From Candidatus Magasanikiibacteriota bacterium (GTDB lineage: Bacteria; Patescibacteriota; Patescibacteriia; Magasanikbacterales; GWA2-37-8), in NCBI GenBank assembly GCA_036744835.1, contig DAIOHD010000001.1:208967-272966 (forward strand): a DNA stretch of 64,000 nucleotides, read 5' to 3'. The position numbers and the translations under genes are program-made. The notes under the pieces were generated by a model. That model did no database searches, was not told the DNA's origin, and saw nothing but the letters and a program-made list of their open reading frames with translations. Below are positions 1,979-59,808 of this stretch, piece after piece. How positions within the stretch are numbered: the stretch's first letter is position 1; the number at the start of each line of letters is the position of its first letter.

Positions 1979-2112
1979 AAAAACTCAAATGTCAAATCTC
2001 AATATTTAAAAGATTTAAGAAATTAAAAAAATTTAAGAGATTATGGTTTGTGTTAAAAAATCTTTTAAATCTTTTCAATCTTTAAATTATTTGGTTTTGA
2101 CTTTTGACATTG
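1979..2112. repeat. MITE-like intergenic element, copy A (CTCAAA-heptamer arms)
   Basis: 5' arm AAAACTCAAATGTCAAATCTC and 3' arm GGTTTTGACTTTTGACATTG are mutually reverse-complementary; same arms recur at 4 other loci. Confidence 0.4.
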
Positions 2113-2274
2113 TTATTTTTATGGTACAATACCTATGTTCCACCAACGGGGTAAAACTGTTCTACAAAAAAACATGTGAAGGTTTGTCGATATTTGCTTG
2201 ACCTGCGGGTTAAGCGTGAGACTTACCACCTATACATTTAGGGGCATGTTTTAACCCCTTGGTTGAACGCAAAA

Positions 2275-2306
2275 AAATCCCTACCAATGGTAGAGATTTT
2301 TTTATT
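2275..2306 (-). terminator. Intrinsic terminator downstream of rpmB (minus strand)
   Basis: CTACCA-A-TGGTAG hairpin flanked by an A-run (plus side) and T-run (minus side). Confidence 0.4.
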
Positions 2307-4745: not shown

Positions 4746-5426
4746 ATGAAAAAAACAATTGTAATTTCTTTGGGCGGTTCTATTATTATTCCCAAAGAAG
4801 GTTTTGACACAATGTTTTTAAAAGGGTTTAAAAAACTTATTTTGAGTTTGATAAAAAAATATAGATTTATCATAGTTTGTGGCGGGGGACAGACGGCCCG
4901 TAGTTATCAACAAGCCGCCCGCACGCTTGGAGATTTGAGTTCTGAGGATTTGGATTGGATAGGTATTCATTCTACCAGATTAAACGGACATTTAATGAGA
5001 ACTATTTTTCGTCGACATGCCCATAAAGCGGTAGTAAAATATCCGCTTAAAAAACAGGATTGGAAAACCCCGATAATGTTAGCTGCTGGTTGGAAGCCCG
5101 GTTTTTCCACAGATTATGATGCAGTGTTGTTAGCGAAAAAATACGGCGCAAATACAGTAATAAATTTATCCAACATTGACTATGTTTACGACAAAGACCC
5201 TCGTGTTAATAAGGATGCTAAAAAACTGGAAAATATAGATTGGGAACAATTTCAAAAAATTGTTGGCACTAAATGGATTCCCGGAGCAAATTTACCTTTT
5301 GATCCGGTAGCTAGTGTTTTGGCAAGAAAAAACAAAATGAAAGTACTATTTGTCAAAGGAACGCAGCTAATAGAAGTCAAAAAGGCGATAGAAGGTAAAA
5401 AAATCAAAGGTACGGTAATCTCATAA
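4746..5426 (+). CDS. pyrH: Amino-acid-kinase family protein, archaeal-type UMP kinase-like
   Basis: 226 aa; IVISLGGSII...FIIVCGGGQTARSY resembles archaeal PyrH more than the bacterial form. Isopentenyl-phosphate kinase is not excluded. Confidence 0.45.
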   Translation: MKKTIVISLGGSIIIPKEGFDTMFLKGFKKLILSLIKKYRFIIVCGGGQTARSYQQAARTLGDLSSEDLDWIGIHSTRLNGHLMRTIFRRHAHKAVVKYPLKKQDWKTPIMLAAGWKPGFSTDYDAVLLAKKYGANTVINLSNIDYVYDKDPRVNKDAKKLENIDWEQFQKIVGTKWIPGANLPFDPVASVLARKNKMKVLFVKGTQLIEVKKAIEGKKIKGTVIS

Positions 5427-16953: not shown

Positions 16954-18329
16954 TGTCGATTCGTAATTTCGTATTATTTCGTAAGTTCGTACGTAATTTA
17001 TTTATGTCTCGTGATTTAATCTCACAACTCAAAAATCTCAAACATAAAGATATCACTCCCAGTGATGCGTGGTTGAAGCAAAACCGCGGTATTTTGTTAT
17101 CTCAAATCAAAAACAATGCCGTGTCCAATGCTCATACTTCTTATGAAAATTTTTGGATTGCAATGTCCGTGTTTTTTGGTGAAAAAATGATTTTAAATGT
17201 AGTAAAACCCCTATCTATTCTTTTGATAGTCACTATGGTCGGAACTTCTGGTTGGATAGCTACTGTGGATGCTGCTTACGAAAGTTTACCCGGAGACATA
17301 TTATATGGAGCCAAAAGAGTGGTAGAAAAAACCCAGATTACTACCGCTTCGGTTTTGGGTAATAAAGATACTGAAACTAAACTTCATTCTGAATTTGCCA
17401 AACGTCGCGCCAATGAAATAAAAAAAGTTTCTGTTAGTGATGATCCGAAAAAAACCGAAAGAGTTGTAGAAACAGTAAAAGATTTAAAAAATGAGATGAA
17501 TAATTTGAGTGATAAATTGGAAGGAAGCAAACAAGTTAGTTTAGCGGCCAACACTCTCAAAGAAGTAAAGAAAAATACGGATCAGATTAAAAGCGTTTTG
17601 ACCGAAGTAAAAGATGACCTATCTCTTGTAGCGACTTCAACAGTAGATAAAAATACAGTAGAAGTTATTTCGCAAGCCAAAGACATGGTAAAAGATGTAG
17701 CGGTTAAAACCGTTGAAGCGGTGGTAAGTAAACATCTAGAAGGTGACGTTAGTGTTAGTACGGATGAAATCAAAAAAATGTTAAACGAAACTGTTACTGA
17801 AACTATCAATGAAACCTTGGTTAAAACCGGTAATTTGGTGGGGGTAAATAATATTGTTGAAGCGGTTAAAACAGAAATTAAAGTTCTTGATAGTGCCAGT
17901 TCTACTGCTTTTTCTACAACCAGCTCAGCTGATTTGGCGCAACAAATAGAAAATATAGCCAGCACTACCAAGCAAGCTGCGTTACAAACTCAGGAAATTA
18001 TCAAAGATTCCGATAAAAAGACCGATGAATTACAATCAATGTTAAATAGCGGAGATTTGGCCGGAGTTTTAAATATGGTAAAGGAAGTAAACGAAGTAAA
18101 TAAAACCGTGGAGAAAATTATTGATACGGCGGTTGGCAGTGTTCAATTGGCTTTGCCTCCGGTAGTCAGTGTGGTAAAAGAAAAAACCGAAGCCGGAATC
18201 AGTGTTACTTCAACAGCGGATGTAAAAGTGATAGTGACGAGCACTCCGACGGCTTCAACGACTATCATAGTAACAACTACCCCGGTTAATACGTCTACTA
18301 CGGTAGAGACAAGCACACTTAAAAAATAA
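16953..18329 (+). CDS. Putative anti-sigma factor: short cytoplasmic N-terminus, one TM, long extracytoplasmic coiled-coil / S-T-rich domain
   Basis: Start overlaps the sigma-gene stop (translational coupling); topology typical of ECF anti-sigma partners. Confidence 0.45.
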   Translation: MSIRNFVLFRKFVRNLFMSRDLISQLKNLKHKDITPSDAWLKQNRGILLSQIKNNAVSNAHTSYENFWIAMSVFFGEKMILNVVKPLSILLIVTMVGTSGWIATVDAAYESLPGDILYGAKRVVEKTQITTASVLGNKDTETKLHSEFAKRRANEIKKVSVSDDPKKTERVVETVKDLKNEMNNLSDKLEGSKQVSLAANTLKEVKKNTDQIKSVLTEVKDDLSLVATSTVDKNTVEVISQAKDMVKDVAVKTVEAVVSKHLEGDVSVSTDEIKKMLNETVTETINETLVKTGNLVGVNNIVEAVKTEIKVLDSASSTAFSTTSSADLAQQIENIASTTKQAALQTQEIIKDSDKKTDELQSMLNSGDLAGVLNMVKEVNEVNKTVEKIIDTAVGSVQLALPPVVSVVKEKTEAGISVTSTADVKVIVTSTPTASTTIIVTTTPVNTSTTVETSTLKK

Positions 18330-18703
18330 TTTTCAATTTTTAATTTTACAATTTTTAATGAATTTTTAAGATTTAATGCTTAAATTATTTTTGAAAATTT
18401 ATTCATTGTAAATTAATTAAAAATTTTAAATTTTAAATTAAAAATTTCATTTAAATCTTAATTCACCCGACTTACTCCTTCCAGTTTGTAGAAAAGATAA
18501 ATCTTATCTCCAAGCTGGAGGGGGCTACTAAGTCAATCCACTGTTGCTTACAAGGTCGAGAGTCCATATGGACTCGCACAGTATTGTGCGTTTGGCGGGC
18601 TAAGGGCATATGTCTTAGGTCATCAAACAAAAAGTTCCGAATTTTTCTGACCCTGCTTGTCGGGCGCGCAGAAAACCGGAAACTATAAATTATTAATTAA
18701 ATT

Positions 18704-22450: not shown

Positions 22451-22765
22451 TGATGTTTTTTTACTTTCTCAAAAATCAAAAATAGTGTAGAATATACATA
22501 ATCAATCTTTAAATCTTGCAATCTTGTAATCTTTAAATTTTTTAATATTATGAATTTAAAAGAAAAATTTTACATAACGTTGAGTTTTGTGCTCGTCGTT
22601 TTTTTTATTTTTGCTGACCTTTATCTTTACCGTTATTATTATCAAGTAAAAACATCTCCGGTTTTACAAATGGATATTTCAGCGGTGTATGAGAAGTATG
22701 TGGAGGGGATAAAATAAAATCGTATATCGTATAACGTGTATCGTATTTCACATACTATATACGAT

Positions 22766-23342
22766 ATACTAAATACTATATACTAAATATTATTTAAATA
22801 TGTCTAAAACTACTAAACTCATTTTACTTATCAACAGCGGGATCATCCTAGTTCTTTTGGTCATCGGCGGATATCTTTGGTTCGCTCAATCCCAGCTCTT
22901 TGTCAAAGCAGGTTTAGCGGAAAGCAAATTCCCTTATAAACTTTATACCGCTTTTGAACTCCAAGGTATGTATTCTCAAGAACCTCTAGAGAATGTGAAA
23001 ACAACCCAAACACCGGAGCAAACCCATGCGTTATTTATTTCCGCTTTGCGAAAAGGGGATATAGACGGAGCAGTGGAGTGTTGTGTATTGAAAGTAGATA
23101 AAGAAAAGATGAGAGAAAAATTAAACAGAATTAAAGACGCGGATAATTTTATGTTGATGGTGAAAGATATTTCCACCGCTGATTTTTCTTATAATAAAGA
23201 TTTAGAAAAAGAATCAAGAATAAATATTGAATTTTATGGTATTGAAAAGGATAAAAAAATTGGAGCGCTGATGACTTTCCAAAAAAATCTTGATGGTATT
23301 TGGATGATAGAATCTTTTTGATAAGTATATAGTATTTAGTAT
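22766..23342. repeat. Perfect 19-bp inverted repeats flanking the 22800-23321 ORF
   Basis: ATACTAAATACTATATACT at 22766-22784 and AGTATATAGTATTTAGTAT at 23324-23342 are exact reverse complements. Confidence 0.6.
22800..23321 (+). CDS. Hypothetical membrane-anchored protein (173 aa)
   Basis: N-terminal TM/signal anchor (LILLINSGIILVLLVIGGYLWF); no recognizable family. Confidence 0.35.
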   Translation: MSKTTKLILLINSGIILVLLVIGGYLWFAQSQLFVKAGLAESKFPYKLYTAFELQGMYSQEPLENVKTTQTPEQTHALFISALRKGDIDGAVECCVLKVDKEKMREKLNRIKDADNFMLMVKDISTADFSYNKDLEKESRINIEFYGIEKDKKIGALMTFQKNLDGIWMIESF

Positions 23343-28018: not shown

Positions 28019-28035
28019 AAAATAAATTTTATTTC

Positions 28036-28115
28036 AAAACTCAAATGTCAAAACTGTTAGAAGTTTTTAGGTTTTGAGATGTGGATTTGAGATTTGCGTT
28101 TTGACTTTTGAGTTT
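28036..28115. repeat. MITE-like element, copy C (arms only, compact)
   Basis: CAAAACTCAAATGTCAAAACTG ... GGTTTTGAGATGTGGATTTGAGATTTGCGTTTTGACTTTTGAGTTTT between the nudix stop and the glyA start. Confidence 0.4.
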
Positions 28116-28507
28116 TATTGTTTTATATCATTAATTATTTGATATACATTATCTGCGCAATCTTCTGGCAAGTTGTTAATGTCGTGCCAATCCCACTCTG
28201 CAATTTCTATGCCTGGTTTTATTTCTCCAATTCTTTTTGCCAAATAATGGATTAAGATAAAAACCTCATTTTCTTTTTTAACCAAAATTGGTCGCAAAGG
28301 TTTTATTATTTCTACTTCAATACCCATTTCTTCTTTTACTTCTCGTTTGCAGGCATCTTCCAAAGTTTTTTCATAATCTTCAACTTTACCGCCTGGAAAC
28401 ATCCACGGTGAAATACCGTTTTCTTTTTGTTCCCGGTTTAGTAAAACTTTATTGTTTTCAATAATTACCGGACCGGAAGCGATAAAAGAAATGTTGTAAG
28501 AATCCAT
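28115..28507 (-). CDS. NUDIX hydrolase
   Basis: Nudix box GGKVEDYEKTLEDACKREVKEEMGIEV. Confidence 0.7.
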   Translation of the reverse strand: MDSYNISFIASGPVIIENNKVLLNREQKENGISPWMFPGGKVEDYEKTLEDACKREVKEEMGIEVEIIKPLRPILVKKENEVFILIHYLAKRIGEIKPGIEIAEWDWHDINNLPEDCADNVYQIINDIKQ

Positions 28508-34595: not shown

Positions 34596-35507
34596 ATGTC
34601 TTGGTTTCTCATCGCATTAATTGGTTATTTTGTTTTGGCGGGAGTTTCGGTCTCTGATAAATTCATTTTATCCAAAAAACTGGCGACACCGGCGGTTTTT
34701 GTTTTTTATTCCACTGTTCCTCTTTTGGTTTTATTTTTATCTTTATTTTTTGGAGTGGAGATTTTTTTGGGCTTGGGTTTATTTTGGGCGGCGATTTCTG
34801 GACTGGCTTTACTTTTTGGCTTTTGGACAATGTATAAAGGTTTTTTCAAAAGTGAAGTTTCTCATGCTGGACCACTTTTGGGAGCTGTAATGCCAATTTT
34901 TGTTTTGGTTATTAGTTACTTTTTTTTGGGAGAAGTGTTAAGCGACAAACAACTGGCAGCCTGTTTTTTGTTGATTTGTGGATCGTTTTTGATTTCTTTT
35001 GAAAAAAGTGTTCAATATAATGGTTGGCACCAGGGTTTTGCTTGGATAATTTTGGCTGGATTTTCTTTTTCTGTTTCTCATGTAGCAGCTAAATATTTAT
35101 ACGATATTTATGGTTTTACCGCCGGACTGGTATGGAGCAGAGGAATGTCTGGAATATTTGGTTTAGCTTTGATTTTTATACCGTCGGTTCGCACGGAAAT
35201 AAAATCTTGGTTTAAAAATAAAGAAAAAGATTTATTACTGCAAAATACAAATAAACTGCCTTTAATAATTTTTAACAAAACTTTTGGTTTAGTTGGTGTA
35301 TTTTTGGTGCAATTGGCTGTGGCGCTCGGTAGTGTAACTTTAGTCAATGCTATGGCTGGTGCGCAATTTGGATTATTGATAATTTTAGTAGCTCTATTGA
35401 GTCGGTTTTATCCGAAAATTTTTAAAGAAGAATATAGTAAACTTGAAGTATTGCAGGAAATAATCGCAGTGGTTGTGATTGGAGTAGGGTTGGGGATGCT
35501 AATTTAA
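34596..35507 (+). CDS. DMT/EamA-like permease (10 TM)
   Basis: Two-fold repeated 5-TM hydrophobic pattern. Confidence 0.4.
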   Translation: MSWFLIALIGYFVLAGVSVSDKFILSKKLATPAVFVFYSTVPLLVLFLSLFFGVEIFLGLGLFWAAISGLALLFGFWTMYKGFFKSEVSHAGPLLGAVMPIFVLVISYFFLGEVLSDKQLAACFLLICGSFLISFEKSVQYNGWHQGFAWIILAGFSFSVSHVAAKYLYDIYGFTAGLVWSRGMSGIFGLALIFIPSVRTEIKSWFKNKEKDLLLQNTNKLPLIIFNKTFGLVGVFLVQLAVALGSVTLVNAMAGAQFGLLIILVALLSRFYPKIFKEEYSKLEVLQEIIAVVVIGVGLGMLI

Positions 35508-35630
35508 AAAACTCAAAACTCAAATCTCAAAACTCAAAACTATTGTATCGCTTCGCGATGCTTATAATAAAATCGTCCCGACTTGTCGGGACACCAAAGT
35601 TTTGACTTTTGACCTTTGACTTTTGAATTT
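35507..35630. repeat. MITE-like element, copy D (CTCAAA arms plus a conserved two-hairpin core)
   Basis: AAAACTCAAAACTCAAATCTCAAAACTCAAAAC ... core TATCGCTTCGCGAT and GTCCCGA-CTTG-TCGGGAC ... AAAGTTTTGACTTTTGACCTTTGACTTTTGAA. Confidence 0.45.
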
Positions 35631-35638
35631 AAATAACT

Positions 35639-36640
35639 ATGTTTTACAAAAAACTTTTAAAATATTCTTTAATCATTATTGCTGTACTTGGTTTTCTTTA
35701 CGTCCAAGCTTGGCTTCTAAGCCTAAAGAAAAATGAAGGTGTAATTTTTGGTGTTAGTTTCAATCCGGACCACGCTCGTTATTTACAAATAGATCAGGGT
35801 AGGGTTTTTTCTGCAATAATCAAAGATTGGGGATTTAAGTATGTGCGTATTCCTGTGCAGTGGAATATTGTAGAAAAAGAGCAAGGTAAGTTTGATTTTA
35901 GTGAAACGGATTATTTTTTGAACGAAGCGGAAAAAATGGGAGTTAGAGTTATCTTGGCGATTGGTCAAAAAACTCCGCGTTGGCCGGAATGTCATACTCC
36001 TGATTGGACCGAGGAATTAAGCGATGAAGAGTATATTGAAAATTTAAATAATTATATTTTACAAACCGTAAATAGATACAAAGATCATTTGGCTTTGGAA
36101 ATGTGGCAAGTGGAAAATGAGCCATTTTTACCGTTTGGAATTTGCCGTAAAAGTTTCAAATATAAAGATTTAAAAGCTGTAGTGGAATTAGTCAGGAGTT
36201 TAGACAACAAGCATCCGCTTATCACTACCGACAGCGGGGAGATTAGTACTTGGCAAAGAAGTGCGCGAGCAACTGATTATTTTGGCACTACTATGTATCG
36301 TGTTATCTGGAATAAGCATTTAGGTTATTTTGACTATGATTGGTTGCCACCATTTTTTTATGTGAGTAAATTGTGGTTAGCTGGCAAAAGTGTTTCACAC
36401 GCTTTTGTAATGGAGCTTCAAGCTGAACCATGGGTTGATAGCCATCATCTTATTTTGACTCCTTTGGAAGAGCAATATAAATCAATGGATTTAAATAGGT
36501 TGCAAAAAAATATTATTTACGCGCAAAAAGTTGGTTTTCCACGAGTCTATCTTTGGGGCGCGGAATGGTGGTATTGGTTAAATGAAAAAAAAGATGCGGA
36601 TGATTTTGTAGAAGAAATAAAAAATTTGAAAAAAGAATAA
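35639..36640 (+). CDS. Glycoside hydrolase, GH5/GH113-like (TIM barrel), membrane-anchored
   Basis: N-terminal TM; WQVENEP (NEP catalytic acid/base motif) and VRIPVQWNIVE. Confidence 0.45.
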   Translation: MFYKKLLKYSLIIIAVLGFLYVQAWLLSLKKNEGVIFGVSFNPDHARYLQIDQGRVFSAIIKDWGFKYVRIPVQWNIVEKEQGKFDFSETDYFLNEAEKMGVRVILAIGQKTPRWPECHTPDWTEELSDEEYIENLNNYILQTVNRYKDHLALEMWQVENEPFLPFGICRKSFKYKDLKAVVELVRSLDNKHPLITTDSGEISTWQRSARATDYFGTTMYRVIWNKHLGYFDYDWLPPFFYVSKLWLAGKSVSHAFVMELQAEPWVDSHHLILTPLEEQYKSMDLNRLQKNIIYAQKVGFPRVYLWGAEWWYWLNEKKDADDFVEEIKNLKKE

Positions 36641-44471: not shown

Positions 44472-44588
44472 TAAAAGTCAAATGTCAAAAGTCAAAACCA
44501 TAGTATCGCTTCGCGATATCTAATAAATTGTCCCGATACAAAATTGGGACACAAAAGTTTTGAGATTTGCGTTTTGAGTTTTGAAATT
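44472..44588. repeat. MITE-like element, copy E (same conserved core as copy D)
   Basis: TAAAAGTCAAATGTCAAAAGTCAAAACC ... core TATCGCTTCGCGATA and GTCCCGATACAAAATTGGGAC ... AAAGTTTTGAGATTTGCGTTTTGAGTTTTGAAATT. Confidence 0.45.
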
Positions 44589-44592
44589 CGCT

Positions 44593-45717
44593 ATGATTAT
44601 AGGGATTGAAGCTAATCATGCCAATAAAGAGCAGAGGACAGGGGTAGAAAACTATTGTTGGCATATTATAAATAATCTTAAAAAACAAATCCCCTCGGAC
44701 GTGAGGGTGATTTTATATACACAAAAACCTCTTTTGCCTGAATTGGCACAAGGGTTACCTTTGAATTGGGAAATTAAAATTTTAACTTGGCCTTTGGGTA
44801 AGTTATGGAGTCAAATCAGATTATCTTTTGAATTGTTTAAAAATAAACCAGATATTTTTTTTGCGCCTGGTCAACTAATACCGTTTTTTTGTCCTCAAAA
44901 AACCGTAGTAACGGTGCATGACAGCGCTTTTATGATTTTTCCAACCAGTTATCGTTTTTGGGGTAGGCAATATCTAAAATGGATGAATAAAAGAATAGTT
45001 AAAAAAGCTATGTTTATTTTAACTCCTTCGGAGTTTAGTAAAAAAGAGTTTAAAAAATTATATAATTTTGCCGAAGATAAAATCATAGTAACTCCACTTG
45101 GTTATGAAAAAGAAGTTTATAACACAACAAACCAAGAAATTTCAGAGAGAATCTTAGAAAATTTAAATATTAGAAAGCCATTTATTTTTTATGTCGGTCG
45201 TTTGGAATATAAAAAAAATATAGTTTCAATTTTGGAATCTTTTGAACAAATTAAAAAAGAAAATAAGTTTTTTGGTCAGTTGGTTTTAGGTGGTAAGCCG
45301 GGTTATGGTTATGAAAAAATAAAAAAAATAATCGAACAAAGTAATTTTAAAGAGGATATAGTTTTGCCTGGATGGTTAAGCAACAAGCAGATTGTCGTTT
45401 GTTTTCAGAAAGCTGAATTTTTTGTGTTTCCTTCTTTATATGAAGGGTTCGGCTTGCCGCTTCTTGAAGCAATGGCCTGTGGTTGTCCGATTGTGGCTGC
45501 CAAAGGCCATAGTTTAGAGGAAGTTGGAGGTGATGCAGTTGAATATTTTGATTTTAAAAATAAATCGGAATTAACTGAAAAACTAAACTTTTTACTTAGT
45601 GACAAAAATAGAATAATTTGGCTTAAACAAAGAGGTTTACAAAGAGTGCAACAATATTCTTGGGAAAAAACAGCTATTTATACAAAAGATTTGTTTTTAA
45701 GGTTGCAAAATAGTTAA
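44593..45717 (+). CDS. Glycosyltransferase family 4 (GT-B)
   Basis: EGFGLPLLEAMACGCPIVA motif; the upstream TTG at 44581 lies inside the repeat arm, so ATG 44593 is preferred. Confidence 0.65.
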   Translation: MIIGIEANHANKEQRTGVENYCWHIINNLKKQIPSDVRVILYTQKPLLPELAQGLPLNWEIKILTWPLGKLWSQIRLSFELFKNKPDIFFAPGQLIPFFCPQKTVVTVHDSAFMIFPTSYRFWGRQYLKWMNKRIVKKAMFILTPSEFSKKEFKKLYNFAEDKIIVTPLGYEKEVYNTTNQEISERILENLNIRKPFIFYVGRLEYKKNIVSILESFEQIKKENKFFGQLVLGGKPGYGYEKIKKIIEQSNFKEDIVLPGWLSNKQIVVCFQKAEFFVFPSLYEGFGLPLLEAMACGCPIVAAKGHSLEEVGGDAVEYFDFKNKSELTEKLNFLLSDKNRIIWLKQRGLQRVQQYSWEKTAIYTKDLFLRLQNS

Positions 45718-58533: not shown

Positions 58534-59808
58534 ATGGATTTTAATACAAGCAATATAAATATTTCCGGACCGACACCGACCAAAAAAAGAGCGGGAAAAT
58601 ATTTTGGTTTATATCTATCTTTAATTTTATTTATTGTTTCTTTTGGCTTAGGGTTTTTTTCCGGACAATATTATTTTATCCATAAAAATATTATTGATGA
58701 AAACGGAGAAGTGGAACAAACAAAAGTTTTAAAATTAAATAGAATGTTAAATCATTCCGATGAGATTGAATTTGAACAATTTTGGGAAGTTTGGGATAAA
58801 ATAAAAGAAAAATATGTTAAAAAAGATGTTAAAGATGAAGATCTTTTTTATGGTGCGGTACAGGGGTTGGTTTATGCATTAGGAGACCCCTATTCTTTAT
58901 ATTTTCCACCAAAAGCTGCAGACGAATTTTCTAAAGATTTATCAGGAGAACTTGAAGGTATCGGTGCTGAAATAGGTATCAAAAATCAATTATTAACAGT
59001 AATCGCTCCGTTGGCAAACACGCCGGCAGAAAGAGCGGGATTAAGGCCTGGAGATGTTATTTTGCAAATCGGCGAAGAAATTACTTTGGGTATGGATGTT
59101 AATACTGCTGTATCAAAAATTAGAGGTAAGGCTGGTACAGAAGTTATTTTATCAGTTAATAGAAATGAATGGCTTGAACCTAAAGAAATAAAAATTGTTC
59201 GTGCTAAAATAAGTGTTCCGTCAGTTACTTTCAAGATGCAGAATAATGAAGTAGGCTATTTTAGGGTTATGCAGTTTAACGAAGATACGCAAAAACAATT
59301 TGATAAAGGAATCAAAGAACTTCAAAATCGCAGTGGTAAAAAAATAATTTTGGATTTACGAAATAATCCGGGTGGTTATTTGGACCAGGCTATTCGTATG
59401 GCTAGCGAATGGATAGAAAAAGGAGTAGTTGTCAGTGAAAAAGGAAATGATGGCAATAACAAAGAACATGAGACTACCGGTAGTGCGCGTTTACAAAATA
59501 TACAAACAGTAGTTTTGATCAACGGTGGTTCAGCCTCTGCGTCAGAGATCGTTGCCGGGGCTTTGCAAGACAATAAAAAAGCTACCATTATTGGAACAAA
59601 AACTTTTGGTAAGGGTTCAGTACAAGATTTTGAAATGTTTCCTGATGGTTCAGCACTTAAGTTGACAGTTGCTGAATGGTTTACGCCAAACGGAAGAAAT
59701 ATCAATAAAGAAGGGATAGTTCCTGATATTGAAGTGATAGAGGAATGGGATAAAGAGAAAATCGGCGAGGATGTGATGATTGATAAAGCACTCGAGTTGT
59801 TAAAATAG
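58534..59808 (+). CDS. ctpA: S41 carboxyl-terminal processing protease (PDZ plus peptidase), membrane-anchored
   Basis: PDZ (GLRPGDVILQIGEE), S41 blocks (LDLRNNPGGYL; NGGSASASEIVAGALQDN; TFGKGSVQ). Confidence 0.75.
   Translation: MDFNTSNINISGPTPTKKRAGKYFGLYLSLILFIVSFGLGFFSGQYYFIHKNIIDENGEVEQTKVLKLNRMLNHSDEIEFEQFWEVWDKIKEKYVKKDVKDEDLFYGAVQGLVYALGDPYSLYFPPKAADEFSKDLSGELEGIGAEIGIKNQLLTVIAPLANTPAERAGLRPGDVILQIGEEITLGMDVNTAVSKIRGKAGTEVILSVNRNEWLEPKEIKIVRAKISVPSVTFKMQNNEVGYFRVMQFNEDTQKQFDKGIKELQNRSGKKIILDLRNNPGGYLDQAIRMASEWIEKGVVVSEKGNDGNNKEHETTGSARLQNIQTVVLINGGSASASEIVAGALQDNKKATIIGTKTFGKGSVQDFEMFPDGSALKLTVAEWFTPNGRNINKEGIVPDIEVIEEWDKEKIGEDVMIDKALELLK

Follow-up and report, generated by a model that had tools for sequence, protein, structure and literature searches.

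A modular, heptamer-armed palindromic repeat in short spacers between co-directional genes of Magasanikbacteria-like Patescibacteria

Among the closest described counterparts of the repeat considered here are miniature inverted-repeat transposable elements (MITEs), namely the ERIC/IRU and Correia/NEMIS types (Delihas 2008, PMC2229807). Both are transcribed together with their neighbours, the effect of ERIC on mRNA depends on its orientation, and Correia elements are cleaved by RNase III (PMC2229807). The repeat in question is present twice, as copies D and E, in a 64,000-nt stretch of contig DAIOHD010000001.1 from a Candidatus Magasanikiibacteriota bacterium (hereafter the window, i.e. the whole stretch that was analysed; G+C content ~35%). 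It resembles these MITEs in being intergenic, non-coding, within their size range of ~100-200 bp and predicted to form a long imperfect stem-loop when transcribed, as well as in having filled and empty sites (in contigs L084 and L085, neither the D nor the E site is filled), size variants with or without an internal segment, a dependence on orientation, and a likely co-transcription with its neighbours. It differs from them in that its arms are tandem heptamers, variable in number and sequence and mismatched every 7 nt, instead of unique terminal inverted repeats, in that no TA target duplication was shown, and in its low copy number and Patescibacteria host.

REP/BIME and REPIN sequences, for which roles in mRNA stabilisation and termination have been proposed (Di Nocera et al. 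2013, PMC3733652; Bertels and Rainey 2011, PMC3116915), are likewise small G+C-rich extragenic palindromes in mosaic units, sited in intra-operon spacers or at gene 3' ends. Here, however, the hairpins are single and enclosed by heptamer arms rather than arranged as inverted REP doublets, and there are few copies per genome instead of hundreds (as counted by strict patterns, which give lower bounds). Membership of the CGTC-tagged REPs was considered and rejected, the tag before hairpin 2 not being conserved. In cyanobacteria, STRR heptamer repeats and small dispersed repeats (SDRs) have reportedly been described by Mazel et al. in 1990 and Elhai et al. in 2008. Their architecture is similar (tandem heptamers between genes, in which small, exchangeable palindromes are nested), but the likeness is one of analogy only: the phylum is different, the genomes are tiny, and the two-hairpin core is apparently not a described SDR (SDRs are mentioned in PMC5861425). 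Intergenic tandem heptamer arrays are also found as the TAACTGA repeats of Beggiatoaceae, Cyanobacteria and Bacteroidetes, which consist of 2-6 tandem heptamers directly upstream of start codons and are patchily distributed across phyla (MacGregor 2015, PMC4679880); these differ in being direct repeats of another heptamer, with neither an inverted partner nor a hairpin core. A further likeness is that the TAACTGA genomes are often devoid of recognisable Shine-Dalgarno sequences. In the window, only 9 of the 52 predicted genes are preceded by a Shine-Dalgarno-like motif, most start codons following A/T-rich sequence, and translation initiation appears to be largely independent of Shine-Dalgarno pairing. 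What is different from the known systems is the use of heptamer arrays as arms, the low copy number and the host.

On balance it is somewhat probable that D and E represent a low-copy, modular, MITE/BIME-like palindromic intergenic repeat, which is transcribed along with the flanking genes and forms a stem-loop between the two cistrons. The host group is that of the Magasanikbacteria-like Patescibacteria; the homologues of the family 4 glycosyltransferase (GT4) encoded next to E carry the labels Candidatus Magasanikbacteria or Patescibacteria. The window also has matches among metagenome contigs of ENA, Logan and JGI. As an earlier note on this DNA had stated, both copies lie between genes of the same strand: D between an EamA-family gene (stop codon 35505-35507) and a glycoside-hydrolase gene (ATG at 35639), and E between mreB (stop codon 44459-44461) and the GT4 gene (ATG at 44593), all four genes being on the plus strand. 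The modules follow each other as an A/C-rich heptamer array, hairpin 1, an A/T spacer, the G+C-rich hairpin 2, the junction ACMAAAG and an inverted G/T-rich heptamer array, i.e. a core of two small G+C-rich hairpins, spacer and junction is enclosed by inverted arrays of the form AAAASTC ... GASTTTT. The parts of both copies are as follows (bit scores refer to the covariance model R1, described below).

35507-35630, plus strand: copy D, the complete element, composed of an A-rich heptamer arm, hairpin 1, the A/T spacer, hairpin 2, the junction ACCAAAG and a T-rich heptamer arm; 132.9 bits
35507-35541, plus strand: left arm of D, tandem heptamers AAAACTC / AAATCTC
35545-35561, plus strand: hairpin 1 of D, GUAUCGC-UUC-GCGAUGC, with 5 Watson-Crick pairs and the outer pairs U-G and G-C
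35562-35574, plus strand: A/T-rich spacer of D, TTATAATAAAATC; on the minus strand, the T-rich tail after hairpin 2
35575-35592, plus strand: hairpin 2 of D, GTCCCGA-CTTG-TCGGGAC, with a terminator-like score on the minus strand only
35600-35630, plus strand: right arm of D, tandem heptamers TTTTGAC / CTTTGAC
44472-44588, plus strand: copy E, whole element, with the architecture of D and arms AAAAGTC ... GAGTTTT; 99.0 bits
44503-44519, plus strand: hairpin 1 of E, GUAUCGC-UUC-GCGAUAU
44529-44551, plus strand: hairpin 2 of E, (U)GUCCCGAU-ACAAA-AUUGGGAC(A), i.e. UGUCCCGAU-ACAAA-AUUGGGACA

A blastn alignment of the two copies spans 119 nt at 77% identity (E = 1e-19), and both contain the exact 15-mer GTATCGCTTCGCGAT (35545-35559 in D, 44503-44517 in E). 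The two-hairpin core is as the earlier note described it, with the correction that the 18-mer quoted there, TAGTATCGCTTCGCGATA, is the version of E, where D has TTGTATCGCTTCGCGATG. The differences between the copies do preserve the pairing, as had been claimed: hairpin 2 of E retains the GUCCC/GGGAC pairs, while a G-C pair has become G-U.

This core was found at 15 distinct loci, counting the window and two pattern scans, of which the one of a genome collection was anchored on hairpin 1 (leaving hairpin 2 free) and the one of metagenomes on the arms only (leaving the entire core free). Thirteen of these loci are D, E, L011, L017, L025, L054, L055, L059, L060, L061, L068, L076 and L079, whereas the more distant ones are L005, in a metagenome-assembled genome (MAG) labelled Saccharibacteria, and L023, in a MAG labelled Moranbacteria. 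Copies are ~105-125 nt long and few: 2 in the 64-kb window, and as strict pattern matches at least 2 in the related MAG CALCZC01 and at least 1 in CAYRYH01. Most matches of the genome scan (16 of 22) were discarded, being due to chance or lying in unrelated contexts in other phyla. A scan of viral contigs with a loose arm-junction pattern returned 28 matches, all of them chance occurrences inside coding sequence, after which this pattern was tightened for the metagenome scan. The covariance model R1, built from the 15 copies, gave true copies at least 99 bits in the sense and at most 77 bits in the antisense direction, compared to 20-60 bits on both strands for elements with arms only. A search of 323 kb of related loci with this model returned arm-level matches, which scored equally on the two strands, but not one additional copy with the core; an extra GTCCC...GGGAC match at L017:7647 lies in coding sequence and was dismissed as chance. 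Between non-orthologous loci the identity of the core reaches 89-97% (D versus L079 92%, L017 versus L060 97%), compared to 71% for D and E, which share a genome. Since the core is thus more alike across genomes (up to 92-97%) than within this one, it seems that the copies arose through dispersal or exchange and not by local origin.

At each of the two positions a hairpin appears to be maintained, on comparative evidence that is modest and fits RNA and DNA hairpins alike. In hairpin 1, ATCGC/GCGAT has changed to ATTGC/GCAAT in L061, with the G-U intermediate ATTGC/GCGAT in L059 and a single mismatch in L054, and in hairpin 2, GTCCCGA/TCGGGAC has changed to GTCCTGA/TCAGGAC in L025, so that the compensatory changes which the earlier note expected of additional copies do occur. 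Besides, whole modules are exchanged or lost. Hairpin 1 is swapped for ATCCCGAT-TAA-ATCGGGAT in L076 and L068, is missing in L056, and is unrelated sequence in L058, which is orthologous to L055 and shares its element, with flanks that are ~95% identical. Hairpin 2 is shortened to GTCCC-GTA-GGGAC in L017, L059 and L060, and swapped for UUUCAC-GAA-GUGAAA in L005 and for other hairpins in L023 and L056. The alignment of the 15 sequences, through which the covariance modelling proposed in the earlier note was carried out, has 89.9% of its cells paired and six pairs with double changes. Its covariation score is 0.078 versus 0.058 in shuffles (1 of 500 of which reached the observed score), and shifting the partners, as a slide control, collapses the pairing. 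Within the two hairpins there are four double changes, each in 1-2 sequences. Shuffles matched the observed values in 1-11 of 500 cases.

Hairpin modules of this kind were also encountered outside the family. A hairpin-2-like module, GTCCCGA-GCAAG-TCGGGAC, lies at L068:4909 (4871-4960) beside a different arm type with AAATTTA/AAATTCA heptamers, which suggests that hairpin modules move between arm families. The exact 14-mer of hairpin 1, TATCGCTTCGCGAT, is found inside TTTTGAA/TGTTGAA heptamer arrays on contig L020 (3029-3160) of a Prevotellaceae MAG, and in the proteobacterial contigs L014 and L024 within hairpins of the form ggaTATCGCTTCGCGATTCCrGAATGACGG; these occurrences could be due to chance or to a shared small module.

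Syntenic contigs, retrieved through homologues of the GT4 protein, show what occupies the D and E sites in relatives (GT, identity of the glycosyltransferase).

L084/L085 (GT 59%): D site, a 30-nt spacer without element (L084); E site (MreB/GT), a 1-nt spacer without element
L081/L082 (GT 69%): D site, ATGACCA/TGGTCAT arms with large G+C-rich hairpins (L081); E site, GTCTACG/GACTGAA-type arms around CTTCGCGAAG
L083 (GT 67%): D site not syntenic (no EamA gene upstream); E site, GTCTACG/GACTGAA-type arms around CTTCGCGAAG
L086 (GT 66%): D site, CTAAA-type arms; E site, a CCTGCCTGCCGGCAGGCAGG hairpin
L087 (GT 65%): D site, CTAAA-type arms; E site, GACTACA x4 arms
L088 (GT 67%): D site outside the contig; E site, CTAAA-type arms

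Heptamer arrays are absent from 21 kb of L084, and between L084/L085 and the window the insertion boundaries are not alignable at 59% protein identity. Unrelated elements likewise occupy each of the site pairs L025/L076 and L017/L079. Because orthologous sites are found empty, replaced or swapped, the elements are modular, were acquired after the split from the L084 lineage and turn over at fixed sites. The element entered, or was exchanged into, very short spacers between co-directional genes. The orthologous elements of L086 (985-990) and L087 (1022-1040) are ~93% identical apart from one clean indel of 14 nt, through which CAATAT becomes a perfect palindrome, ATATTGAATATTCAATAT, in L087; this looks like hairpin growth by fold-back (template switching). 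At the D-site orthologue of L081, the arms (1030-1060 and 1220-1270) contain the heptamer TTGGTCA/TGACCAA, of which TTGGTCA is, we assume, the repeat unit of the cyanobacterial STRR2.

The predicted minimum-free-energy folds are highly stable, with -41.0 kcal/mol for D (z = -10.7) and -35.7 kcal/mol for E (z = -6.7), and for neither copy did any of 200 shuffles fold as low; together with the length of the copies, this matches the size and stem-loop of the MITEs mentioned above. The idea that long complementary arms clamp the hairpins into one extended stem-loop holds in so far as the arms close both hairpins in the predicted folds, but the arms are not perfect complements, since they pair in helices of ~5 bp (UCAAA/UUUGA) with a mismatch of 1-2 nt in every heptamer.

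All copies are intergenic, usually starting no more than ~15 nt from the upstream stop codon and ending no more than ~30 nt from the downstream start codon. For all 11 copies with both flanks known, the flanking genes are co-directional, and apart from a few orthologous pairs these genes are unrelated between loci. Orientation relative to the flanking genes, a check that the earlier note had proposed, turned out to be strongly biased, with the element co-oriented at 13 of 14 informative loci (two-sided binomial P ~0.002). The exception, L017, is inverted between two minus-strand genes, the other genes of that locus being on the strand of the element. The core itself is asymmetric as well. Terminator-like hairpins were predicted on the minus strand alone, where in D hairpin 2 precedes ATTTTATTAT and in E hairpin 1 precedes CTATGGTTTT, and in 14 of the 14 copies examined the 10-nt tail after hairpin 2 has more T in the antisense direction (5-7) than in the sense direction (3-5). 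The combination of a G+C-rich hairpin and a U-tract that defines an intrinsic terminator is thus present only antisense to the flanking genes, and D and E have neither a sense-strand terminator nor a promoter positioned to transcribe the element. An internal promoter was considered, as the spacer often reads TATAAT, and rejected because no -35 box is suitably spaced from it and because A/T spacers will by chance contain hexamers resembling a -10 box. The TTGACA of the T-rich arm was likewise rejected as a -35 box for the downstream gene, as in D and E the distance to the ATG is too short to accommodate both a -10 box and a leader.

As the element fills the whole spacer, co-transcription with its neighbours is most likely. 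In the mRNA it would form one long interrupted stem-loop bearing both hairpins, comparable to ERIC, Correia and REP/BIME elements, which influence the processing or stability of mRNA, and in the observed orientation neither hairpin would be followed by a U-tract, which should allow read-through. In the reverse orientation, hairpin 2 plus AUUUUAUUAU would form an intrinsic terminator, with a polar effect on the downstream gene. The orientation bias may therefore be best explained by the asymmetry of the core, and it would not require any function, because an element inserted between genes of one transcript would be tolerated only if oriented so as to allow read-through. The conservation of the hairpin structure could then mean either that the fold is recognised during spread or exchange, or that it has a role in the mRNA.

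Several observations weigh against this interpretation. Folding energy gives no strand preference (the sense strand is the more stable one in 7 of 15 copies), and an asymmetry between G-U and A-C pairs in favour of the sense strand is confined to the outer two pairs of hairpin 1, so neither approach gave a clear signal for the strand of function. Covariation comes from single sequences per pair and from related sequences, and the tool used warns of false positives; moreover, a DNA palindrome can acquire compensatory changes even if it has no function as RNA. Gene orientation is confounded with replication orientation (39 of the 52 window genes, or 75%, are on the strand with positive GC skew), and since L017 follows the majority strand of its locus, the bias may track replication instead of transcription. 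Neither a target-site duplication, nor a unique terminal inverted repeat, nor a transposase was identified (the window proteins were not scanned for transposases). Short direct repeats are present around D (ATTTAAA) and L025 (TAAATAAT), but they are not consistent, the flanks being A/T-rich and the arm ends fuzzy. We know of no transposase or insertion sequence related to the repeat. Finally, the relatives with 65-69% GT identity have a palindrome at the D and E sites throughout, which is not explained by tolerated insertion and hints at either a role for the host or a targeting of existing palindromes.

The latter would fit a DNA-level palindrome comparable to REP/REPINs or SDRs, of which single-stranded DNA hairpins are recognised by a Y1-type or other transposase or nuclease, with the replication strand setting the orientation. 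DNA hairpins predict compensatory changes and module swaps equally well, and the lack of a strand preference in RNA folding energy, the position of L017 on the majority (presumably leading) strand of its locus, and the GC skew of the element strand, which is positive at every core-bearing locus except L068 (14 of 15), all agree with it, although this skew is confounded with coding-strand composition. Elements also replace each other at the same sites, as if palindromes were targets, and the palindrome-creating 14-nt indel of L087 relative to L086 resembles template switching. However, there is no consistent GTAG/CGTC tag by hairpin 2 (CGTC in D, L061, L079 and L068; TGTC, AGTC or CTGT elsewhere), copy number is low (2 strict matches in CALCZC01), and no transposase gene was seen, though with the limit on scanning given above. 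This explanation is a rather unlikely one, yet a serious rival. Less likely still is that the host benefits from the element as an insulator, which terminates antisense or convergent transcription while passing sense transcription, or because it stabilises 3' ends or offers a processing site, so that the expression of adjacent cistrons is uncoupled. The restriction of terminator-like hairpins to the antisense strand speaks for this, as does the retention of heptamer-armed palindromes of unrelated sequence at the D and E sites of the 65-69% GT relatives and, similarly, at the L025/L076 and L017/L079 sites, as though the property rather than the sequence were conserved; the 59%-identity relative, on the other hand, does without an element at either site.

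The earlier note had viewed the element as a transcribed structural RNA or a protein-recognised element, as opposed to neutral spacer. The last part holds, and the hairpins are maintained, whereas a discrete small RNA gene, i.e. a stable, stand-alone RNA of ~120 nt that functions through its two hairpins, is very improbable. The stable predicted folds, the compensatory and wobble changes that preserve the hairpins, the orientation bias and the G-U pairs at the base of hairpin 1 (on the sense strand only) would all be in line with such a gene. Yet the element, which abuts the upstream stop and downstream start codons, lacks its own promoter as well as a terminator on the sense strand, and Rfam 15 gives no match at the gathering threshold (the best ones in E-value mode reach 12-20 bits, versus thresholds of 36-180). 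It is moreover multi-copy, beside unrelated genes and not syntenic, its hairpin sequences are freely swapped or lost at orthologous sites, these sites can be empty or occupied by unrelated palindromes, and folding energy shows no strand preference.

The co-transcribed repeat, which remains the preferred reading for D and E, has company in the window. The arm motif occurs 17 times, versus 0.36 expected, and from these occurrences five elements, A-E, were delimited; the core described above is restricted to D and E. The other three are as follows (no strand assigned).

1980-2110: element A, with the arm type of D and E and a different, A/T-rich core of ~100 nt
14127-14316: element B, with the arm type of D and E and a core of other G+C-rich hairpins (gtcattccc...ggaatccag; ctggatcccc...cggggat)
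28033-28116: element C, with the arm type of D and E and a minimal core, between two minus-strand genes

The site orthologous to element A in L011 has arms without the core. Downstream of element A there is a conserved non-coding stretch (window 2110-2300, plus strand; L011 1400-1680, minus strand) with an extended -10 box, TGGTACAAT (TGGTATAAT in L011), ~15 nt past the TTGACA of the arm, and with a stem-loop and T-run at its end (~2270-2300). Judging from its sequence, this stretch resembles a small RNA gene of ~170 nt that has escaped annotation, for which no convincing Rfam match was found, E-value mode included. Hairpins of the types gtcattccc...ggaatccag, ctggatcccc...cggggat and gtcattctgag...ctcaggatgac are found in the cores of element B (14170-14270) and of the L081 element (1040-1240), and presumably resemble the multi-phylum hairpin repeats that yield spurious short open reading frames (ORFs). 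Elsewhere in the window, a match to the Rfam family Rickettsia sRNA47 (RF02800; 59356-59659, minus strand; 68.3 bits versus a gathering score of 60) lies antisense within a plus-strand ORF (58534-59808), and probably reflects conserved protein-coding sequence captured in the Rfam model rather than a small RNA.

Three more intergenic palindromes in the window (16057-16149, 18327-18446 and 22717-22789) are built from other tandem heptamers (TGTATTA/AATACTT, AATTTTT/AAAAATT and ATCGTAT/ATACGAT), and because of these, heptamer-armed palindromes are a general feature of the spacers of this genome, beyond the AAAASTC family. Tentatively, and with a fairly low probability, such modular palindromes may constitute a clade-wide, as yet undescribed class of spacer elements in the Patescibacteria, in which spacers, once occupied, remain so but are repeatedly overwritten (with respect to heptamers, hairpin modules and palindromic indels). 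A search of the available literature found no description of such elements in the Patescibacteria, also known as the candidate phyla radiation (CPR). If real, the class would imply a mechanism of hairpin-targeted exchange or insertion without a classical transposase, which may be common to the cyanobacterial STRR/SDR and the Beggiatoaceae/Bacteroidota heptamer repeats.

The genomes of Patescibacteria are small and dense, and are usually thought to be poor in repetitive or mobile DNA. Here, structured modular repeats lie inside formerly tightly coupled gene pairs and turn over at fixed sites between species, which would affect operon annotation, small-RNA prediction, assembly and strain typing, as well as the view of how tiny non-autonomous elements spread. 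Should they act on mRNA, the repeats would join a short list of regulatory features known from these uncultured bacteria.

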